DNA from: Vulcanisaeta distributa DSM 14429
GTDB lineage: Archaea > Thermoproteota > Thermoprotei > Thermoproteales > Thermocladiaceae
Assembly: GCF_000148385.1 (NCBI RefSeq)
Contig: NC_014537.1
Location: 1,200,001 to 1,232,000 of the forward strand
Direction of reading: 5' to 3'
Length of the DNA: 32,000 nt
Shown here piece by piece: positions 5,139 to 19,043 of the stretch. Each line of letters opens with the position of its first letter. Within the stretch, counting starts at the first letter, position 1. The notes under the pieces were generated by a model. It made no database searches. It saw nothing but the letters and a program-made list of their open reading frames with translations, and had not been told where the DNA came from. A program made the translations under genes and the position numbers.

Positions 5139-5578
5139 GGTTACTACTTAAAAATGCCTCATTGCTAATACTCCTGGTCACGATGTCAGCCTTCATTGAT
5201 GCGTTAGCGATATTGATAGTACTCGTGGTGATAGCCCTTATAACTGATGCTGCAATAATGTACGTAGCAAGAAGAATCGCAGCAAGAAATCCAAATGTCT
5301 CAAAGTTGCAGAGGTATGAGGCTGGTAATCCACCTGTTGGTGAGGCTAGGTACGTATTCCCAATACAGTATGTGGGCTTCCTACTCATGTTCCTTGGTAT
5401 GGAGCCGATCATAGTTATATTACTAATTCTATCATCGGTGGCGGTCATGGCACTGCCAATAATTTATATAATATTGGCGATATTAGTAATAACCCTACCA
5501 AGTATCTATGTCGGTTATAAATACGCACTAAAAATGGCGTATCCCAAAGAATTTATAAGAAGGTCAAGCGGTAGGTGA
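5135..5578 (+). CDS. nuoA: NADH-quinone oxidoreductase subunit A
   Basis: Three TM segments and the conserved loop KLQRYEAGNPPVGEARYVFPIQYVGFLLMFLGMEPII, a NuoA/ND3 signature. Directly upstream of nuoB/C. The true start may be an internal Met. Confidence 0.85.
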   Translation: MRLLLKNASLLILLVTMSAFIDALAILIVLVVIALITDAAIMYVARRIAARNPNVSKLQRYEAGNPPVGEARYVFPIQYVGFLLMFLGMEPIIVILLILSSVAVMALPIIYIILAILVITLPSIYVGYKYALKMAYPKEFIRRSSGR

Positions 5579-6846
5579 CGCGAATGTCACTTGACAAAGC
5601 ATTAGAGCCCTACAAGAAGTGGGGTACGAAATATTCCCTATGGCCGGTGCACCTCGTAACGGCATGCTGCGGCGTCGAGATGGCACACACCTGGAACCCA
5701 ACCTATGATGCCGAGAGGCTCGGCTCGCTGCCATGGCATGCCCCAAGGCAGACAAACCTAATCCTTGTTGAGGGTACAATAACCTTCAAGATGGCTAGGG
5801 TCCTCAGATATGTTTGGGAGCAAATGAGCGATCCAAAGTACGTAATTGCAATGGGCTCCTGCGCAGCTGAGGGTGGTATATTCTGGAATAGCTACCACGC
5901 GGTCCCCGTTAATAAAATAATACCGATTGACGCATACGCCATAGGCTGCCCACCGACGCCAGAGGCCGTTATTCAAATGATTAAGATAGTCCAAAGGAAG
6001 ATAGAGACGGGCGAGGCCAGGGCGAACGTTAAGCCAAAGACCATAGACCTAACAAAGATCTTCACACCATCACCAACAAAACAACCGGCGCCAAACCCAC
6101 CACATAGGATAACCCCCAACCCGCACATACCTGTTTGTCAGGAGAAGAAGGTGGAGTGGCCCTTCGGTTATGAGTTAATTAATAATCAATTAATGCCCGC
6201 ACTCAAGGAGTCAGCAAAGAAAATAATCGTAACAGACATTAATAGAATATGCGTTGATACAGAGCCCAATAAGTTAAGGGACGCCGCATTATCATTGTCA
6301 AAGCTCGGCTTTGACCATGTTAAGTCGGTTAATGTTATTGATGTGCCTCACGAGAATAAGTTCTACGTCGAATACTGGGTCTCGAGCTATAGCAAGAAGG
6401 AGCTAATGCCCATACTCATTTCATTGACGACGGAAATACCGAGGGATAACCCCAGGGTACCAAGCCTAATGGATATTTGGCCGAGCGCTGATTACATGGA
6501 GCGCGAGATGTATGACTTCTTCGGTGTTTGGTTTGAGGGTAATCCATGGATGGGTAGGAACTTCCTACTCGACCCAGACACCCCAGTTAAGTTCCCGCTT
6601 AGGAAGGACGTACCAATAGTTAGGGAGTTCTACATAGTCGATAGGGAGTTCCCTGGACTACCCGTGGCGCCACCACAGCCAAAGCCGGCAGCGGCGCCGC
6701 AGAAACCAGCCCAAGCACCAGCCCAACCAAAGCCTGCACAGCAAGCCCCACAGCCAAAGCCCGCTGAGACCGCACAGCCACAGGTAAAACCTGCCCAGGA
6801 AAAACCAAGTGAAGGTAAGCAGGAGACGGGCGGTAGCACCGGGTGA
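5575..6846 (+). CDS. nuoBC: Fused NADH-quinone oxidoreductase subunits B and C with Pro-rich linker and PQK-rich C-terminal tail
   Basis: NuoB part: WPVHLVTACCGVEM, GSCAAEGG, GCPPTPE (N2 cluster cysteines). Linker: TPSPTKQPAPNPPHRITPNPHIP. NuoC part: GFDHVKSVNVIDV, WPSADYMEREMYDFFGVWFEGNP, FPLRKD. One uninterrupted frame of 423 aa. Confidence 0.9.
   Translation: MTRMSLDKALEPYKKWGTKYSLWPVHLVTACCGVEMAHTWNPTYDAERLGSLPWHAPRQTNLILVEGTITFKMARVLRYVWEQMSDPKYVIAMGSCAAEGGIFWNSYHAVPVNKIIPIDAYAIGCPPTPEAVIQMIKIVQRKIETGEARANVKPKTIDLTKIFTPSPTKQPAPNPPHRITPNPHIPVCQEKKVEWPFGYELINNQLMPALKESAKKIIVTDINRICVDTEPNKLRDAALSLSKLGFDHVKSVNVIDVPHENKFYVEYWVSSYSKKELMPILISLTTEIPRDNPRVPSLMDIWPSADYMEREMYDFFGVWFEGNPWMGRNFLLDPDTPVKFPLRKDVPIVREFYIVDREFPGLPVAPPQPKPAAAPQKPAQAPAQPKPAQQAPQPKPAETAQPQVKPAQEKPSEGKQETGGSTG
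6655..6843 (+). repeat. Low-complexity coding repeat (Pro/Gln/Lys/Ala-rich tail of NuoBC)
   Basis: Encodes PVAPPQPKPAAAPQKPAQAPAQPKPAQQAPQPKPAETAQPQVKPAQEKP. The DNA string ccacagccaaagcc occurs twice and the cca/gcc-rich codons are iterated. Confidence 0.8.
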
Positions 6847-12181: not shown

Positions 12182-13096
12182 TCATACTTCACGAGCCCTC
12201 GACTTATCGTAAGACTCCCACAGCTCATCCACGTTGAAGCTATAGACCTTACTTAACGTCACACTACGCCTCAGGTATAGGTGCAGGTCGAGCTCATCGG
12301 TGAACCCTATACCTCCATGTACCTGGATACTGTCCCTAATCGTATTTGGGATAATCCTTGATGCGTAGTCCAACGCCATGGGCGCTAGCTTCAAGTCATC
12401 GGCAGCCCTTAGGTATAGTGACCTGGCGAGCTCTATGTTAAGTGCCATGTTCACCAATTTATGTTTCACGGCCTGGAATGCACCTATTGGTCTACCGAAG
12501 GCAATCCTCTTCTTTGCGTAATCCACCGATAACTCAAGCGGTGGTTTACCGGTACCAACTATGGCTGCGGATAGTAGGAGCGCTACTAAGTCTCTATTCA
12601 CACCTACCTTAGTACTCCTCCTAAAGTTGACTTGGCACCACCTCATCGAGTTATCGAAGGAGTTCAGCGGCTTTACCGAGGCATCATCCTTCCAGATTAG
12701 GTTATCGCCAATTACTATGACGTCAGCCCTATGCGCCTCGGGCGCCATATTTGCGGTGCTTGATATCGATATTTTCAACTTACCCTCATACTTCTCATCA
12801 CCTAATTCATTACCCGTGGCTACGGCGCCTATTATTGTCGTTATGACAATACCAGGCGGAAGCCTTGAGCTCACCTCCTCCATCAGTATTGCTGCATCCC
12901 TCGGCTTGGCGTCCCTGAAGAATTCAAACAATCCAAAATTCACCAAGGCCTTCCATAATTCATCAAGTACTGATGTATCGCCTTCACTATAACTCCTTAG
13001 TTTGGCGGTTGACCATACCTTATTGAAGAGTTCATTCAGATTGTTCAGTATTATTTTCAGTTCCTCATTTAAGTAATCCTTAATGCCGATAATCAT
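12182..13096 (-). CDS. Acyl-CoA dehydrogenase-like protein, short form (putative non-FAD beta subunit)
   Basis: The C-terminal ACAD helical domain is clear (KRIAFGRPIGAFQAVKHKLVNMALNIELARSLYLRAA, IQVHGGIGFTDELDLHLYLRR). The protein is only about 304 aa and lacks the GFSEPxxGSD-type middle-domain motif. ATG 13094-13096 sits 1 nt after the upstream ACAD stop. The ORF track's 13135 start looks like an extension. Confidence 0.8.
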   Translation of the reverse strand: MIIGIKDYLNEELKIILNNLNELFNKVWSTAKLRSYSEGDTSVLDELWKALVNFGLFEFFRDAKPRDAAILMEEVSSRLPPGIVITTIIGAVATGNELGDEKYEGKLKISISSTANMAPEAHRADVIVIGDNLIWKDDASVKPLNSFDNSMRWCQVNFRRSTKVGVNRDLVALLLSAAIVGTGKPPLELSVDYAKKRIAFGRPIGAFQAVKHKLVNMALNIELARSLYLRAADDLKLAPMALDYASRIIPNTIRDSIQVHGGIGFTDELDLHLYLRRSVTLSKVYSFNVDELWESYDKSRAREV

Positions 13097-13097
13097 A

Positions 13098-14231
13098 CTA
13101 AACACCCTTTGGAAGCCCAAGCACGAGCTCTCCAAGGAGGTTACGCAGGATTTCAGAAGTGCCGGAGAGTATTGTATAGCCCTTACTATCTATATACCCA
13201 AAAGACCACTCGAATAAATCACCCTCAGCAAGAGCCTCGGGACCCAGCTTCGACACCGCCGCTATGTATATCTTCTCGAGAACCTCGGACGCCAACAACT
13301 TTATTGAAGCAGCCTCGGGCCCTACCATCTCACCCCTCAGTGCGAGCATGAGCATTCTATCATAAAGCTCCTTAACTGCCAGCGCCTCCTCGAGGAGCGC
13401 CAACGTATCCGCATCGCGCCTCACCTCCACCAGGTGCCTAGCGGCACTTGCTGCGGCGTAGGCGAAGGCGCCGCCTATGTTCAGTCTCTCGAAGTTCAGG
13501 GTAGTCATGGCAACCCTCCAGCCATCACCAACTTTACCAACCACGTTATCCTTGGGAACCTTAACATTATCTAGGAAGACCTCACTAAATCCAGGCCTGC
13601 CGTTAATCTGCTTTATCGGTCTATAGGTAATCCCCTCAGACCTGGTGTCTACGATAAACATCGTTAAGCCCTTATGCCTTTCCTCAGGTGAGCCAGTCCT
13701 AGCGAGCACTAGGTAGTAATTAGCCAAGTGGAAGTCGCTACTCCAGACCTTCCTACCATTCAGTACAAAGTAATCACCCCTATCCTCAGCCTTGGTGGTT
13801 ATTGCCGCCAAGTCCGAGCCGCAGCACGGCTCGGAGAAGCCCTGGGCCCAGACATCCTCACAAGTCAATATCCTCCTTAAATACCTCCTTTTCTGCTCTT
13901 CACTGCCATGAAACAGAATGGCGGGGCCCGCCACGGATAAGCCAATTCCTGGACAGCCGGGGTAGACAATACCGAGACTAAGCGCCACATCCCTAACTAC
14001 TAACTCCTTCCTTACGTCATCGCCATACCCACCATACTCCTTAGGCCAACTTATGCCGACTAAGCCGGCATTATATAATGTCCTGTGCCACCTAACGGCG
14101 GCATCAATGAACCTAGGGTCCTCATAGTACCAACCAATACCACCACGCCTAATCCTCATCTCAGGAGGAGCATTCTTAATAAACCAATCCTTAACGTAAT
14201 CCCTAAACCTCTCGAGTTCCGACTCAGACAT
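13098..14231 (-). CDS. Acyl-CoA dehydrogenase (putative alpha subunit)
   Basis: 377 aa with all three ACAD domains: HGSEEQKRRYL, WAQGFSEPCCGSDLAAITTKAEDRGDYFVLNGRKVWSS, C-terminal TILSGTSEILRNLLGE. The canonical catalytic Glu of the YEGT motif is replaced by Ser (LSGT). Confidence 0.9.
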   Translation of the reverse strand: MSESELERFRDYVKDWFIKNAPPEMRIRRGGIGWYYEDPRFIDAAVRWHRTLYNAGLVGISWPKEYGGYGDDVRKELVVRDVALSLGIVYPGCPGIGLSVAGPAILFHGSEEQKRRYLRRILTCEDVWAQGFSEPCCGSDLAAITTKAEDRGDYFVLNGRKVWSSDFHLANYYLVLARTGSPEERHKGLTMFIVDTRSEGITYRPIKQINGRPGFSEVFLDNVKVPKDNVVGKVGDGWRVAMTTLNFERLNIGGAFAYAAASAARHLVEVRRDADTLALLEEALAVKELYDRMLMLALRGEMVGPEAASIKLLASEVLEKIYIAAVSKLGPEALAEGDLFEWSFGYIDSKGYTILSGTSEILRNLLGELVLGLPKGV

Positions 14232-14433: not shown

Positions 14434-16200
14434 ATGAATGAGCAGATCCAGCAACAACATAAGTATAATACAGAAGAAGAAGTCTTTAATGAAATTATAC
14501 CTGGCTACCAATTAACTATTGACAAAATACTCAAGACAGGCATAACGCTATTTCCCAATAATGAAATTGTTTATTGGCCTCCAAATGGCCGTAGGCTCCA
14601 CTTCACATTTAAAGAATTTAATGAAAGGGTTAACAGGCTTGGTTGGGTCCTTAAGGAACTCGGCGTAATTAGTGGTGACCCAAGGAGAATGGGTACGAGG
14701 GTTGCCATATTTGATTGGAACACGCATAGATTCCTTGAATTGCTATATGCAGTGCCCATGTACGGTGCAGTGCTCCAACCAGTTAACATTAGGTTGGCGC
14801 CTGAGGAGATCATCTACGTGATGAATAAGTCCAGGGACGAGGTAGCCTTTGTAAATGCTGACTTCCTACCATTGATAAAGGCGATAGCCCCAAAGCTTGA
14901 GTACCTAAGGAAAATAGTCGTTATGCATGATGGTGAGGAGCCGATAAAGATTGAGCGCATTAGCAATGCTGAGGTATACGATTATGAGGAGTTAATGAAG
15001 GAGGCCAGGGAATTCAACTACCCGGAGGAGCTTGATGAGAGGACTGTCATGGTGATGATGTACACCTCAGGCACCACAGGGTTGCCCAAGGCAACGATAT
15101 TTAGGCATAGGGAGATAGTACTGCATGCAATCGCCGTATTAATAATCGCAGTGTGGAATTGGTACCCAGCGCATTACCTAAGGTTCACTAGGAATGCCTA
15201 TAACCCACTCGGTGAGCCATCGCTTCTCCTTGTACCATTCTACCACGTGCTCGGTTGGGGAGCGCCGTACTATAACATCATGGGCGGTACACCGAAGATA
15301 GTACTGCCGGGTAGGTATGAGTGGAACCATATTATTAGGTTGATTAAGGAGGAGAAGGTAAAGAATGCGGGTGGCGTGCCAACAATGTTGTACCTAATGT
15401 TGAACAGTCCTGAGCTCAAGGACGTGGACCTAAGGGGGTTCCTATGGAGTCTTGGTGGTGCGGCGGCTACCAAGGGGTTAATTGAGGAGGCCAGGAAGAG
15501 GGGCGTGATATTGACTAATGGTTACGGATTGACGGAGACGGCACCGGTTGTTATAGCGCCTACACTGTCGCCGGACCTAATAATGAACCTAAGCGAGGAG
15601 GAACTACAGGAATTAGTGGTCAACAGCATTGGAAAGCCCCTACCATTTGTCCAGGCCAGGGTGGTTGATGAGGAGGGTAGGGATGTGCCTAAGGATGGAA
15701 AAACCGTGGGCGAGCTGGTGCTGAGGGCTCCCTGGATAACCCTGGGCTATTACGGAGACCCAGAGAAAACAAGGGCTGCCTTCAAGGATGGTTGGTTCCA
15801 CACCGGGGACTTGGCAACGTGGGATGAGAGGGGGTTCATATACATTGTAGATAGGGCTAAGGACGTTATCAAGAGTGGCGGTGAGTGGATATCAAGCCTT
15901 AAACTTGAGAGCTTAATATCACTCCACCCAGCGGTTGCGGAGGTGGCAGTCATAGGCGCTACGCATGAGAAGTGGGGTGAGAGGCCCGTGGCCATTGTCG
16001 TGCTGAGGCCAGAATTCAAGGGCAGGGTTAAGGAGGAGGATATCATAAATCACGTGAGGACGTTCGTTGATGAGGGCGTTATACCGAAGTGGTGGGTGCC
16101 TGACAAGGTGATATTCGTTGATGAGCTTCCAAAGACCGGCGCGGCCAAGATCGATAAGAAGGTGCTTAGGGATAGATATAGAGATGTATTGATTAAGTAA
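14434..16200 (+). CDS. AMP-dependent acyl-CoA synthetase/ligase (fatty-acid-CoA ligase family)
   Basis: 588 aa with adenylate-forming motifs MMYTSGTTGLPKA, GYGLTETAP, WFHTGDLATWDERGFIYIVDRAKDVIKSGGEWIS and a C-terminal PKTGAAKIDKK. Confidence 0.9.
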   Translation: MNEQIQQQHKYNTEEEVFNEIIPGYQLTIDKILKTGITLFPNNEIVYWPPNGRRLHFTFKEFNERVNRLGWVLKELGVISGDPRRMGTRVAIFDWNTHRFLELLYAVPMYGAVLQPVNIRLAPEEIIYVMNKSRDEVAFVNADFLPLIKAIAPKLEYLRKIVVMHDGEEPIKIERISNAEVYDYEELMKEAREFNYPEELDERTVMVMMYTSGTTGLPKATIFRHREIVLHAIAVLIIAVWNWYPAHYLRFTRNAYNPLGEPSLLLVPFYHVLGWGAPYYNIMGGTPKIVLPGRYEWNHIIRLIKEEKVKNAGGVPTMLYLMLNSPELKDVDLRGFLWSLGGAAATKGLIEEARKRGVILTNGYGLTETAPVVIAPTLSPDLIMNLSEEELQELVVNSIGKPLPFVQARVVDEEGRDVPKDGKTVGELVLRAPWITLGYYGDPEKTRAAFKDGWFHTGDLATWDERGFIYIVDRAKDVIKSGGEWISSLKLESLISLHPAVAEVAVIGATHEKWGERPVAIVVLRPEFKGRVKEEDIINHVRTFVDEGVIPKWWVPDKVIFVDELPKTGAAKIDKKVLRDRYRDVLIK

Positions 16201-16262
16201 TGAAAATAATTATTCTCATTAAGAATTAAAAATAAATTTATTCCTATTAATCAGGGTAATTT

Positions 16263-17420
16263 ATGAGAAAGGCATACATAACGGGCTTTCACCAGGTAAT
16301 TGAGAAGGAGAGCAGGAGAAGCTTCTTTGAATTGATTGGCGAGACCGTACAAAGGACGCTTGAGATGGGTGGTATCAGTATTGATGAGGTGGACGGGTTG
16401 GGCATTGTTCACACCACCGCGGTTGATGAAAGGCCGATCAGGATAATGCTCGCTAACCAAGTCGCCAATTACCTGGGCATTGGGAGGCTTAGGTACATTG
16501 ACGTGGCTGAGTTTGGCGGTGCCTCATTCAATGCCCTTGTTTATCGGGCCGTTAAGGCAGTGGAGAATGGGCTTGCGAGGGCTGTCCTGGTAATTGGCGG
16601 TGGCAAGAGTAGCGTATTTAGGAGGAGGGGCATTGATGAGGGTCTTGTGGCTAGGAACTACGTAAGTACCCACAGGGTTATTGAGTTCTTACCAACCAGT
16701 GACTACGCCATGGTGGCACTGAGGTACTCACACGTGTATAACGCCACTGATGAGGGCAGGGCAATGATCGCAGTTAGAGAGAGGGCCAATGCTAGGTATA
16801 ATAAGGATGCAATATTCAGGGAGCCGATAAGCGTTGCCGATGTATTGAACTCACCAATGGTGAGTTATCCACTGAGGCTACTGGAGGTTGTGATGCCTGT
16901 GGATGGTATGTCGACTTTCCTAATCGTTAATGAGAGCTTGGCTGGGAAGTCGAAGATCACGCCCATCTCTATCCTTGGCTATGGCGAGGCCCACGATCCA
17001 AGCCCACTCTTTGATAGGGATGACATATTGAATACAGTTATCCCAATAAGCGCAGGCAAGGCGCTTAGCGAGGCCAACATTGGCATAAACGATATTGACC
17101 TATTCATGCTTTACGACGCATACACAATAATGGTCGTGCTGGAGCTAGAGGGTATTGGCTTGGCCGAAAAGGGCTTGGGTTGGCGGTTCGCAGAGTATCA
17201 TGATTTCTCGCCGTCGTCAACATACCCAATAAACGTTAATGGTGGTTCCCTAAACACTGGGCAACCAGCGTACATGAGTGGCGGCGTGATACTCACTGAG
17301 GCATTAATCCAGCTGTCTGGCATGGCCGGTGAGAGGCAGGTTAAGGGAGCCCGTAGGGCACTTGTTAATGCAATTGGCGGCATACTTAATCATTCAACAA
17401 CCTTGGTCCTTGGTGTTTAG
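16263..17420 (+). CDS. Thiolase-fold (SCP2-thiolase-like) protein lacking all cysteines; putative Ltp2-like aldolase or non-catalytic thiolase paralogue
   Basis: 385 aa with a thiolase-like layout: VAEFGGASFNALVYRAVKAVENGLARAVLVIGGGK, DLFMLYDAYT, NVNGGSLNTGQPAYMSGG. Gly85 occupies the nucleophile Cys position, HDCF becomes YDAY, GHP becomes GQP. There are zero Cys in the whole translation. Confidence 0.85.
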   Translation: MRKAYITGFHQVIEKESRRSFFELIGETVQRTLEMGGISIDEVDGLGIVHTTAVDERPIRIMLANQVANYLGIGRLRYIDVAEFGGASFNALVYRAVKAVENGLARAVLVIGGGKSSVFRRRGIDEGLVARNYVSTHRVIEFLPTSDYAMVALRYSHVYNATDEGRAMIAVRERANARYNKDAIFREPISVADVLNSPMVSYPLRLLEVVMPVDGMSTFLIVNESLAGKSKITPISILGYGEAHDPSPLFDRDDILNTVIPISAGKALSEANIGINDIDLFMLYDAYTIMVVLELEGIGLAEKGLGWRFAEYHDFSPSSTYPINVNGGSLNTGQPAYMSGGVILTEALIQLSGMAGERQVKGARRALVNAIGGILNHSTTLVLGV

Positions 17421-17421
17421 T

Positions 17422-17763
17422 ATGGAGCTCGAAGAATTACTGAAGGAGTACAATAGAATCTATGAAAATGGGTTAGTGCCAATAACACGGTGCAGGGCAT
17501 GCGGCTATAAGTTCCACATGCCAAGGACCAGGTGCCCCAGGTGCGGCTCAACGAATCTAGAAGTTATTGGCTACGGCGAGGGCACCATCTACTCATACAC
17601 AATAATAGAGAGAGGATTGCCAACAAGGACAGTAGTCGTTCTCGCAGACCTCGATGGAGCCAAGGTTAAGGCGAATTACGTTGGTGATTTGAATGCGCTG
17701 AAGATAGGGGCTAGGGTCAGGGTTGTTAGGAGGGATGGTAATATATACTTTACAAATTATTAA
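17422..17763 (+). CDS. DUF35 protein (rubredoxin-like Zn ribbon + OB fold), thiolase-fold partner
   Basis: 113 aa from ATG 17422, 1 nt after the upstream stop. CRACGYKFHMPRTRCPRCG Zn ribbon, then OB-fold strands GTIYSYTII...VVVLADLDGAKVKANYVGD...GARVRVV. The ORF-track start at 17329 is an overlapping extension. Confidence 0.85.
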   Translation: MELEELLKEYNRIYENGLVPITRCRACGYKFHMPRTRCPRCGSTNLEVIGYGEGTIYSYTIIERGLPTRTVVVLADLDGAKVKANYVGDLNALKIGARVRVVRRDGNIYFTNY

Positions 17764-17849
17764 ATAGCAATACATTTATTATATATGAAAATATATTAAG
17801 AGTAAAAATACACCTAATATTTACATTTACGGGTACTTCTACTGATTAT

Positions 17850-19043
17850 ATGGTCGAGAGAATTCTCATAGTTGGATTTGGGACCATGGGGAGCGGTATA
17901 GCCGAGGTCTTTGCCATGAATGGCTTTGAGGTAAATGTCTATGATGCCTACAGGGACGTAATACCCAGGAGCCTTGAGGGTATTAGGTGGAGCCTTGGTA
18001 AGCTACGTGAAAAGGGCTCTCTTCGTGAGGACGTTGATACCGTCATGAAGAGGATTCATGTGTTTGATAATCTGGGTAATGCGGCCAGGGATGTTGATTT
18101 GGTAATTGAGGCTGTGTTCGAGGATCCAAAGGTTAAGCACCAAGTATATAGGGAGTTGGAGGGTTACGTCGGTAAGGACGTAATAATAGCGAGCAACACA
18201 AGCGGTATACCAATAACCTACTTGCAATCGGTGCTTCAGTATAAGGGTAGATTCGCGGGCTTCCACTGGTTTAATCCGCCGGTTCTCATGAGGCTTGTGG
18301 AGGTTATAAAGGGCAGGGATACCAGTGATGAGACGGCCGGCGCACTCATGGACCTGGCAAGGAGGGTTGGTAAGGAGCCTATTCTCGTTAGGCGCGATGT
18401 AAGGGGTTTCATAGCCAATAGGGTGTTTGGTGTACTGAGTACGCAAGCCTTCATACTATATATGCGGGGCATCTATGACTATAGGGCGATGGACTCGGCG
18501 TTGATCTATAGGCTTGGGCTCCCTATGGGCGTCTTCGCACTCACGGACTTCACCGGGGGAATAAAGCTGAGTTATGAGAGTAGGAACCTATTTGAGGAGA
18601 TAGATAGGGTGGCGCCTGAGACCGAGCCATCCAAGGGGCTGGCTAAGGCAAGAACATTTGTGTTCAGCCTAATTGAGAAAATGTACAGAGAGGGTAGGAT
18701 AGGCATAAGGACTGGGAAGGGGTTCTATGAATACCCGGAGCCGGGCAGGTGGGTTAGGCCGGATATACCGAGGGAATTGGCCGACAAGGTGAATTTACTG
18801 GACCTGCTGGCGCCCATGGTCAACGAATCACTAAGAATGGAGAGGCTGGGTATATGCACCAGGGGTGATATAGACAAGGCACTAAAGCTTGGCTATAACT
18901 GGCCAAAGGGCTTATTTGAGATATACGGCAGAGACTTCACCGCAACGGATGTGGTGAATACGCTTAGGAGGATGAGCGACTTAATCCCAGACCTAAGGGA
19001 GTTCTATGAACCAGACCCAGCACTACTAAATGAGACTAAGTGA
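17850..19043 (+). CDS. 3-hydroxyacyl-CoA dehydrogenase (NAD-binding)
   Basis: 397 aa. Rossmann motif ILIVGFGTMGSGIAEVFAMNGFEVNVYD, then EAVFEDPKVKHQVY, ASNTSGIPIT, FHWFNPPVLMRLVEV. Both the 3HCDH N and C domains are present. Confidence 0.9.
   Translation: MVERILIVGFGTMGSGIAEVFAMNGFEVNVYDAYRDVIPRSLEGIRWSLGKLREKGSLREDVDTVMKRIHVFDNLGNAARDVDLVIEAVFEDPKVKHQVYRELEGYVGKDVIIASNTSGIPITYLQSVLQYKGRFAGFHWFNPPVLMRLVEVIKGRDTSDETAGALMDLARRVGKEPILVRRDVRGFIANRVFGVLSTQAFILYMRGIYDYRAMDSALIYRLGLPMGVFALTDFTGGIKLSYESRNLFEEIDRVAPETEPSKGLAKARTFVFSLIEKMYREGRIGIRTGKGFYEYPEPGRWVRPDIPRELADKVNLLDLLAPMVNESLRMERLGICTRGDIDKALKLGYNWPKGLFEIYGRDFTATDVVNTLRRMSDLIPDLREFYEPDPALLNETK

Follow-up and report, generated by a model that had tools for sequence, protein, structure and literature searches.

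A protein of the thiolase fold that contains no cysteine is encoded directly upstream of a small DUF35 protein in the stretch of the Vulcanisaeta distributa DSM 14429 genome analysed here, the 32,000 nucleotides at positions 1,200,001 to 1,232,000 of NC_014537.1 (hereafter the window). The first gene occupies positions 16263..17420 of the forward strand, ends with TAG at 17418-17420 and encodes 385 amino acids; its open reading frame, Pfam hits, matches in the Protein Data Bank (PDB) and AlphaFold2 model mark it as SCP2-thiolase-like and related to the bacterial aldolase Sal. A single nucleotide separates its stop codon from the ATG of the second gene (17422..17763, forward strand), which encodes the predicted partner subunit, a stand-alone DUF35 protein of 113 amino acids (Pfam zf-ChsH2, 6.6e-07; OB_ChsH2_C, 2.8e-06). 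This protein consists of a C4 zinc ribbon (Cys24, Cys27, Cys38 and Cys41, CxxC...CxxC) and an oligonucleotide/oligosaccharide-binding (OB) fold. An earlier, sequence-only reading of the locus had described a 385-residue thiolase-fold protein devoid of cysteine, the motifs VAEFGGASF, YDAY and GQPAY, and a zinc-ribbon/OB DUF35 gene 1 nt past the stop. All of these observations are borne out: the reading frame holds 0 cysteines, the motifs stand at residues 81-89, 284-287 and 333-337, and Pfam and the coordinates agree on the DUF35 gene.

The window protein is 100% identical to V. distributa ADN50665.1, and its public names are 'Acetyl-CoA C-acetyltransferase (Acetoacetyl-CoA thiolase) (AcaB-10)' and 'thiolase family protein'. 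Claisen thiolases need an acyl-cysteine intermediate. In the absence of any cysteine, the specific enzyme name is very probably an error of annotation, and one that is propagating through the clade. Pfam recognises Thiolase_C_1 (1.4e-37), the N-terminal thiolase domain remains under threshold, and all NCBIfam thiolase models score far under their cutoffs (best 221 bits vs 421). Zero cysteine alone is weakly unusual: cysteine accounts for 0.66% of residues in the window's open reading frames of at least 200 amino acids, which corresponds to about 2.6 expected in 385 residues and a probability of about 0.08 of finding none. What goes beyond chance, as judged from the sequence, is the pattern at the catalytic positions.

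These positions were mapped in a residue alignment of the window protein with TcLtp2, CtSal, 4U4E, 7YVY, ST0096 and 46 homologues. The TcLtp2 sequence was taken from the PDB alignment (...AAILY294DHF...NTHGGQLGEAY344IHGMNG...), and spatial statements rest on homology to published structural descriptions. CtSal is the retro-aldolase of Comamonas testosteroni that acts on bile acids at their C5 side chain, and its structure was determined with the hydratase Shy's DUF35 domain bound to it (PDB 9MYR; PMC12329534). Its base is Tyr302 and its acid Cys304 in the motif Y302-D-C304-Y; the Cys304Ala and Cys304Ser variants are inactive, Tyr305Phe and Tyr165Phe have minor effects only, the substrate hydroxyl is touched by the Gly89 backbone, and the oxyanion hole is made up of the Gly391 NH and Gln161 (PMC12329534). 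According to the same paper, the base of Ltp2 is Tyr294, the first residue of YDHF, and its acid is Tyr344, which corresponds to CtSal Gln352 (PMC12329534). TcLtp2 is the Thermomonospora curvata steroid C3 side-chain aldolase, paired with the DUF35 domain of ChsH2 (PDB 6OK1), and shares with the window protein the cysteine-less thiolase fold and the DUF35 partner.

In the nucleophile loop, Gly86 of the Gly85-Gly86 codons (16515..16520, forward strand) pairs with the cysteine of the Pyrococcus furiosus thiolase 7yvy (EAACASGG) and with CtSal Gly89, and it is invariant in the clade; TcLtp2 likewise has a glycine at the nucleophile position. The sequence-only reading had picked the right loop, but its choice of Gly85 fails, since the cysteine aligns with Gly86. 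The equivalent of the thiolase HDxF motif is Y284-D285-A286-Y287 (17112..17123, forward strand), as the alignments and the published motif (PMC12329534) agree. Here Tyr284 aligns with Sal Tyr302 and Ltp2 Tyr294, the essential base in both enzymes, Ala286 with the acid Cys304 of Sal and the oxyanion His296 of Ltp2, and Tyr287 with Sal Tyr305, which is non-essential in Sal. At the equivalent of the thiolase GHx motif, G333-Q334-P-A-Y337 (17259..17273, forward strand), Gln334 occupies the position of Sal Gln352, Ltp2 Tyr344 and the thiolase GHP histidine, and Tyr337 that of Sal Thr355, a substrate-pocket residue. Gly373 further corresponds to Gly391 of the Sal oxyanion hole, and the conserved Tyr148 to Sal Tyr165. 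Ltp2 also differs from the window protein by a 3-residue deletion after Tyr344. As aligned, the protein thus keeps the common catalytic base of the two aldolases and has neither of their known acids.

The earlier equation of YDAY with HDCF, an HDxF motif, therefore holds, whereas the functional tyrosine is its first residue, Tyr284, and not Tyr287. The proposed match of Tyr287 and Tyr337 to Ltp2 Tyr294 and Tyr344 has to be abandoned: it contains a register shift of +3, and the alignment places Tyr284 and Gln334 at these positions. The 50-residue spacing once cited in its support is equally true of Tyr284 and Gln334 and is a coincidence. Both tyrosines also vary among the archaeal orthologues, position 287 being Phe in most of them and position 337 Phe or Met in many, so that neither Tyr287 nor Tyr337 is a universal catalytic residue.

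Archaeal acetoacetyl-CoA thiolases are defined by the motifs CxS, HDxF and GHx, in which x is variable (PMC12960953). All three are changed to Sal residues in the window protein (CxS to GAS, HDxF to YDAY, GHx to GQP). The P. furiosus enzyme reads HDAF, and because x is variable in archaeal HDxF and alanine occupies this position in P. furiosus, Ala286 is best read as an ancestral-like state of the archaeal lineage; the changes are then C to G, H to Y and H to Q. Characterised archaeal enzymes of this kind that are associated with DUF35 proteins (P. furiosus PFC_04095, 7YVY; Methanothermococcus thermolithotrophicus, 6ET9; Sulfolobus acidocaldarius Saci_1121/1120) resemble the window protein in fold (template modelling (TM) scores of 0.85-0.90), in pairing with a small stand-alone DUF35 protein and in lid length. 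By contrast, they keep the CxS cysteine, the HDxF histidine and the GHx histidine where the window protein has Gly, Tyr and Gln. With all three catalytic motif residues replaced, the earlier view that this is not a Claisen thiolase stands.

The closest characterised relative of the protein is Sal, by sequence, by fold and in the tree. CtSal (9myr_A) is its best match among PDB sequences (E = 1.7e-50), and TcLtp2 (6ok1_A) matches at E = 2.6e-21 only, with 25% identity. An AlphaFold2 model built with 46 homologues as input (predicted local distance difference test score 92.9) shows a thiolase fold (alpha-beta-alpha-beta-alpha), with TM scores of 0.80-0.90 against thiolase-family structures. Its top Foldseek match is again 9myr_A (E = 3e-39, TM 0.88, 32% identity), followed in order by Sphaerobacter 4U4E, the P. 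furiosus thiolase 7YVY, TbSLP, ST0096 and Ltp2. In a distance-based tree (neighbour-joining, Kimura distances, 200 bootstraps), the archaeal orthologues form one clade in 200/200 replicates. This clade is sister to CtSal and a YDCY-type relative in 149/200 (74.5%), and it groups with TcLtp2 and the Ltp2-like homologue P0076 in 0/200. The label 'Ltp2-type' of the sequence-only reading has thus to be dropped, Sal and not Ltp2 being the top match. Its broader placement among the DUF35-dependent, nucleophile-less thiolase-fold proteins is upheld; the only characterised members of that group, Sal and Ltp2, are retro-aldolases. Two further relatives, Trypanosoma brucei TbSLP (5AB4-5AB7) and the Sphaerobacter 'thiolase' 4U4E, resemble the window protein in being nucleophile-less with a Y-D-x-F motif. 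TbSLP reads YDCF, has no described DUF35 partner and has been proposed as an aldolase by the authors of the CtSal study (PMC12329534); 4U4E reads YDSF and retains His at the GHP position (THP).

The orthologue clade, with 41-86% identity, comprises Vulcanisaeta, Sulfolobales (Saccharolobus, Sulfolobus, Metallosphaera) and Thermoplasmata (Thermogymnomonas), and so covers Thermoproteales, Sulfolobales and Thermoplasmata. Clade-wide motifs are Gly-Gly at the nucleophile site, Y-D-[A/S]-[Y/F] and [G/T/S]-Q-[P/V]-x-[Y/F/M]. Across 30 clade members 52 positions are invariant, among them Gly85, Gly86, Ser88, Tyr148, Tyr284, Asp285, Thr288, Asn324, Asn331, Gln334, Asn369 and Gly372. The five active-site loops of 30 orthologues have a mean entropy of 0.76, while that of the whole protein is 1.47 (resampling, P<1e-4), which argues for a working site and not a decayed one. 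A strain-specific degenerate copy, the case that the sequence-only reading had named as refuting it, was rejected: the orthologues all lack the catalytic cysteine, from V. souniana (98% identical) and metagenomic relatives to 29 archaeal orthologues that are more distant. Judged by this distribution, the cysteine-less state is old and has been maintained.

An exhaustive search of 1.84 billion representatives returned 4681 relatives, of which 216 of the nearest were surveyed for motifs. Within these 216, a nucleophile-site Gly is accompanied by Tyr (Y-D-x) and a Cys by His (H-D-x), a covariation that looks like a coordinated functional switch. Gly-type sequences with His at the GHP position read YDS (32 sequences), YDA (27) or YDC (25). 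Those with Gln at that position read YDS (20), YDA (14, the type of the window protein and all archaeal), YDC (13, the Sal type) or YDD (10). His377 (17391..17393, forward strand), in the C-terminal catalytic hairpin four residues past Gly373, is specific to the clade: it is present in 29/34 of the YD[A/S] sequences with Gln, as against 1/119 in the other seven motif groups tabulated, and TbSLP and 4U4E lack it. His377 is accordingly placed here as the leading candidate for a replacement acid.

Two cysteine-less paralogues lie about 7 kb apart in Sulfolobus sp. A20 (L006:144-1313, reverse strand, and L006:8001-9182, forward strand). Both have GG, YDA[F/Y] and GQ together with a His377 equivalent, each has its own DUF35 gene, and one of the two pairs adjoins a MaoC dehydratase and an acyl-CoA ligase. 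On the related contig L009 the corresponding upstream gene encodes a genuine thiolase (EAACATGS, HDCF, GHP).

The DUF35 gene adjoins and follows the thiolase-like gene in 13/13 archaeal loci. Its product in the window matches, among PDB sequences, S. solfataricus Trf/Sso2509 (6htj, 3.7e-12), the CtShy DUF35 domain (9myr_B, 7.8e-08), the DUF35 protein of the M. thermolithotrophicus thiolase/3-hydroxy-3-methylglutaryl-CoA (HMG-CoA) synthase complex (6esq_E, 4.4e-07) and the ChsH2 DUF35 domain (6ok1_B, 1.4e-05). It stands alone with a C4 site, unlike the DUF35 domain of CtShy, which is the C-terminal domain of a MaoC hydratase and has a C3H1 site. Trf/Sso2509 was published as a 'translation recovery factor' with a non-metabolic role (PMC6996347). 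On a Saccharolobus contig (L007:7140-7502), the gene that comes immediately after a cysteine-less thiolase-like gene encodes a DUF35 protein with which Trf shares 61% identity, and Trf may thus be, or derive from, a partner subunit of this family. A study of the S. acidocaldarius thiolase/DUF35 proteins counted seven pairs and did not set the cysteine-less ones apart (bioRxiv 10.1101/2024.07.05.601840). S. acidocaldarius was considered as an exception without DUF35 and rejected: the downstream DUF35 gene is present and had been called as a 56-amino-acid fragment. The frame of this call (L001:9152-9493, after AAY81065) reads through a full zinc-ribbon/OB protein (YEELIKAYFDSFESERLPYIKCTKCGKVFYYPRTFCINCNS...), and a miscalled start codon probably explains the short call.

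At the junction of the two genes in the window lies the 13-mer GGTGTTTAGTATG (17412..17424, forward strand), made up of Gly-Val codons with a Shine-Dalgarno-like GGTG, the TAG, one nucleotide and the DUF35 ATG. The window has a single further exact copy of GGTGTTTAGTATG, where the large- and small-subunit genes of an acyl-CoA dehydrogenase meet (13094-13106, reverse strand); 0.06 matches at up to one mismatch are expected. The shared junction suggests translational coupling for the production of stoichiometric subunits.

That dehydrogenase is encoded divergently upstream of the pair. Its PimC-like large subunit (377 amino acids, 13098..14231, reverse strand) matches the Pfam Acyl-CoA_dh N, M and C domains and NCBIfam pimC_large (3.7e-52). 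Its IpdE2-like small subunit (12182..13096, reverse strand) matches Pfam Acyl-CoA_dh_1 only and NCBIfam IpdE2 (4.4e-30), with a likely ATG at 13096, one nucleotide past the large-subunit stop. The two, from an archaeon, resemble the heteromeric alpha/beta acyl-CoA dehydrogenases described for the breakdown of steroids and pimelate in bacteria, and a similar pair of large and small subunits flanks the orthologue in locus L003. Between the divergent genes and the pair, in the direction of the latter, lies an AMP-forming acyl-CoA ligase of 588 amino acids (14434..16200, forward strand; Pfam AMP-binding, 1.1e-65), which scores over the cutoff of the NCBIfam long-chain-fatty-acid--CoA ligase subfamily (526.8 bits). 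Downstream of the pair follows a 3-hydroxyacyl-CoA dehydrogenase of 397 amino acids (17850..19043, forward strand; Pfam 3HCDH_N, 3.6e-57, and 3HCDH). The gaps on either side of the pair (16200-16262, 62 nt, and 17764-17849, 86 nt) are very AT-rich, with TATA-like runs near the start codons. It may be that the ligase, the thiolase-like/DUF35 pair and the dehydrogenase do not form one operon and are transcribed as separate units, possibly leaderless. Genes for a hydratase, an aldehyde dehydrogenase or a cysteine-containing thiolase were not found within the 32-kb window.

The neighbourhood was compared across 13 archaeal loci, for 10 of which Pfam listings were available and for the rest tblastn. 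A DUF35 gene lies near the pair's thiolase-like gene in 13/13 loci within 2.5 kb (13 within 6 kb) and an acyl-CoA ligase gene in 8/13 (9 within 6 kb). For a short-chain dehydrogenase/reductase the figures are 5/13 (5), for an acyl-CoA dehydrogenase 1/13 (4), for a 3-hydroxyacyl-CoA dehydrogenase 1/13 (3), for an aldehyde dehydrogenase 0/13 (1) and for a MaoC hydratase 0/13 (1). A genome-collection scan took in at least two archaeal (Thermoplasmata) loci and at least 78 others, almost all bacterial; these served only for a coarse tblastn co-occurrence count, and this count under-detects short, divergent DUF35 proteins. Loci L003 and L007 contain a ligase, acyl-CoA dehydrogenase(s), an enoyl-CoA hydratase, a 3-hydroxyacyl-CoA dehydrogenase and a regulator, and L003 also a family III CoA-transferase; short-chain dehydrogenases/reductases occur in L002, L005, L008 and L010. 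Genes compatible with an aldolase are a divergent aldehyde dehydrogenase, alongside a short-chain dehydrogenase/reductase and a ligase, in L008, an aldo-keto reductase in L010, and the MaoC hydratase by the second cysteine-less pair in L006. Taken together, the neighbours look like those of beta-oxidation and not of steroid catabolism.

We tentatively favour, with something short of confidence, the reading that the pair is a Sal-related retro-aldolase acting on a 3-hydroxyacyl-CoA with a new proton donor. It is preferred because of the homology to Sal, the one-for-one exchange of thiolase residues for Sal residues, the covariation of Gly and Tyr, and the obligatory DUF35 partner. The two genes would then encode a heteromeric carbon-carbon lyase in which, by homology to the alpha-beta-beta-alpha assemblies of CtSal and TcLtp2, a thiolase-fold dimer is flanked by two DUF35 proteins. 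A 3-hydroxyacyl-CoA would bind, Gly86 (through its backbone NH) and Tyr284 (through its hydroxyl) holding the beta-hydroxyl, whose proton would be taken by Tyr284. Cleavage of the bond between C-alpha and C-beta would release an aldehyde or ketone and the enolate of acetyl-CoA (or propionyl-CoA). This enolate would be stabilised by the Gly373 backbone NH and the region of Gln334 before being protonated. As proton donor, His377 is the first candidate; next come polar residues that are invariant (Asn369, Asn331), or water. The probable substrate is an acyl-CoA smaller than a steroid, because the lid loop (residues 115-145), with 31 residues as against 45 in CtSal and 38 in Ltp2, falls 14 residues short of that of CtSal, and steroids are implausible in the habitat of a hyperthermophilic archaeon. 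The neighbouring ligase, two-subunit acyl-CoA dehydrogenase and 3-hydroxyacyl-CoA dehydrogenase point to the catabolism of a fatty, branched or dicarboxylic acyl-CoA.

Several findings weigh against a retro-aldolase. The general acids of both known aldolases are missing (Cys304 of Sal is replaced by Ala286, Tyr344 of Ltp2 by Gln334), and the Cys304 position is Ala or Ser throughout the archaeal clade. Sal Gln347 is replaced by Ser329, and Sal Gln161 faces a gap in a variable loop, in a stretch that the archaeal protein lacks. In the window a 3-hydroxyacyl-CoA dehydrogenase gene is near the pair, and neither an aldehyde dehydrogenase nor a hydratase gene is, which further sets the cluster apart from that of CtSal. 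Second only to the ligase among the catalytic neighbours in the archaeal loci is a 3-hydroxyacyl-CoA dehydrogenase or short-chain dehydrogenase/reductase, near in 8/13; it would form a 3-ketoacyl-CoA, which thiolases use and aldolases do not. An aldehyde dehydrogenase and a MaoC hydratase are each near in 1/13. In the window, L003 and L007, the cysteine-less protein takes the place of the thiolase, as the sole product of the thiolase fold in a beta-oxidation-type gene set that is complete in other respects. The sequence-only reading had offered a retro-aldolase or else a scaffold; the relatedness to aldolases holds, and the function itself has to be worded as tentatively as above, with both acids missing and neighbours that fit poorly.

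These neighbours would suit a pair that acts on a 3-ketoacyl-CoA, supplied by the adjacent 3-hydroxyacyl-CoA dehydrogenase or short-chain dehydrogenase/reductase, without a cysteine nucleophile. In that case Tyr284 and the Gly86 NH would polarise the beta-carbonyl, and the reaction could be a hydrolytic retro-Claisen cleavage to a free acid and acetyl-CoA, a direct attack by CoA without an acyl-enzyme, or the decarboxylation of a malonyl-type or beta-keto CoA ester. We regard this as a somewhat doubtful explanation. The dehydrogenases are near in 8/13 archaeal loci as compared with 1/13 for the aldehyde dehydrogenase; the window, L003 and L007 hold a ligase, an acyl-CoA dehydrogenase and a 3-hydroxyacyl-CoA dehydrogenase (with an enoyl-CoA hydratase in L003 and L007) and no cysteine-containing thiolase, and a ligase within 2.5 kb in 8/13 loci would suit the re-activation of a released free acid. 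Crystals of TbSLP, moreover, bind acetoacetyl-CoA and malonyl-CoA (5ab6, 5ab7), and the protein has weak malonyl-CoA decarboxylase activity (PMC12329534). CtSal, on the other hand, has no such activity (PMC12329534), the assayed Gly/Tyr-type relatives with robust activity are all retro-aldolases, and no thiolase-fold enzyme is known that cleaves a 3-ketoacyl-CoA without a cysteine nucleophile. The dehydrogenase genes also lie behind promoter-like AT-rich gaps or on the other strand, and their link to the pair may be at the level of a regulon only. The bolder proposal that the cysteine-less clade performs the chain-shortening carbon-carbon cleavage of beta-oxidation without cysteine, whether hydrolytically, by direct attack of CoA on a 3-ketoacyl-CoA or by an aldolytic bypass with a new donor such as His377, seems to us quite improbable; if true, it would give the thiolase fold a mode of catalysis not yet described for it.

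The loss of three thiolase catalytic residues together with the absence of both aldolase acids would be in keeping with an inert thiolase paralogue that, with its DUF35 protein, serves as a scaffold or acyl-CoA-binding subunit for other pathway enzymes. This possibility, which recalls the role of DUF35 in archaeal thiolase/HMG-CoA synthase and fatty-acid-synthase assemblies, we consider unlikely. Three published findings would accord with it: Cys304Ala abolishes CtSal activity (PMC12329534), DUF35 proteins mediate multi-enzyme assemblies (bioRxiv 10.1101/2024.07.05.601840), and Trf/Sso2509, the closest solved DUF35 protein, was given its role outside metabolism (PMC6996347). However, across three archaeal orders no part of the protein is more conserved than the active-site loops, with Tyr284, Asp285, Gln334, Gly86 and Asn324 invariant; the covariation of Gly and Tyr extends over hundreds of relatives; and the clade-specific His377 was gained, not lost. 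Such conservation is unexpected for a decayed site, yet it would also suit conserved ligand binding. That the protein is after all an ordinary acetyl-CoA C-acetyltransferase or 3-ketoacyl-CoA thiolase, as its public names, its thiolase fold and its beta-oxidation-like neighbourhood would have it, is hardly credible given the zero cysteines, the replacement of the CxS, HDxF and GHx residues by Gly86, Tyr284 and Gln334, and the NCBIfam scores far under cutoff.

To our knowledge, thiolase-fold aldolases are known from just two bacterial steroid enzymes, each with a different acid. The literature that we searched contained no study of archaeal members of the cysteine-less thiolase-fold family. What appears to be new at this locus is an archaeal protein of the Sal/Ltp2 superfamily with a stand-alone DUF35 partner, in a non-steroid context and with a predicted catalytic set (Tyr284 and Gln334, no cysteine, no second tyrosine, the clade-specific His377) that matches neither characterised solution. 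Because the base Tyr and the nucleophile-replacing Gly are kept and neither known acid is present, the archaeal clade would represent a third type of catalytic arrangement, or else carry out another reaction. If the retro-aldolase reading is true, this type of enzyme leaves steroid catabolism and enters the general acyl-CoA metabolism of hyperthermophilic archaea. The multiple thiolase/DUF35 pairs of hyperthermophilic archaea are currently all read as ketothiolases, and pathway reconstructions that count the protein as a thiolase in Thermoproteales, Sulfolobales and Thermoplasmata would be affected. In a wider survey, Gly/Tyr-type relatives from bacteria and archaea ran into the hundreds, with S, A, C, D, P or N at the third position. 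Given their number and this variability, the chemistry of Sal and Ltp2 may be only the exposed part of a large family yet to be characterised.

Two further observations concern gene content. In the metagenomic locus L004 (L004:3445-4560), the pair is flanked by an acetyl-CoA-synthetase-like ligase and a major facilitator superfamily transporter; further upstream, the opposite strand encodes a cytochrome P450 and a family III CoA-transferase. This context hints at the catabolism of an oxidised, hydrocarbon-like substrate. Elsewhere in the window, a 423-amino-acid open reading frame (5575-6846, forward strand) between NuoA-like and NuoD-like genes fuses an Oxidored_q6 domain (NuoB-like, 20-kDa) to a Complex1_30kDa domain (NuoC-like).

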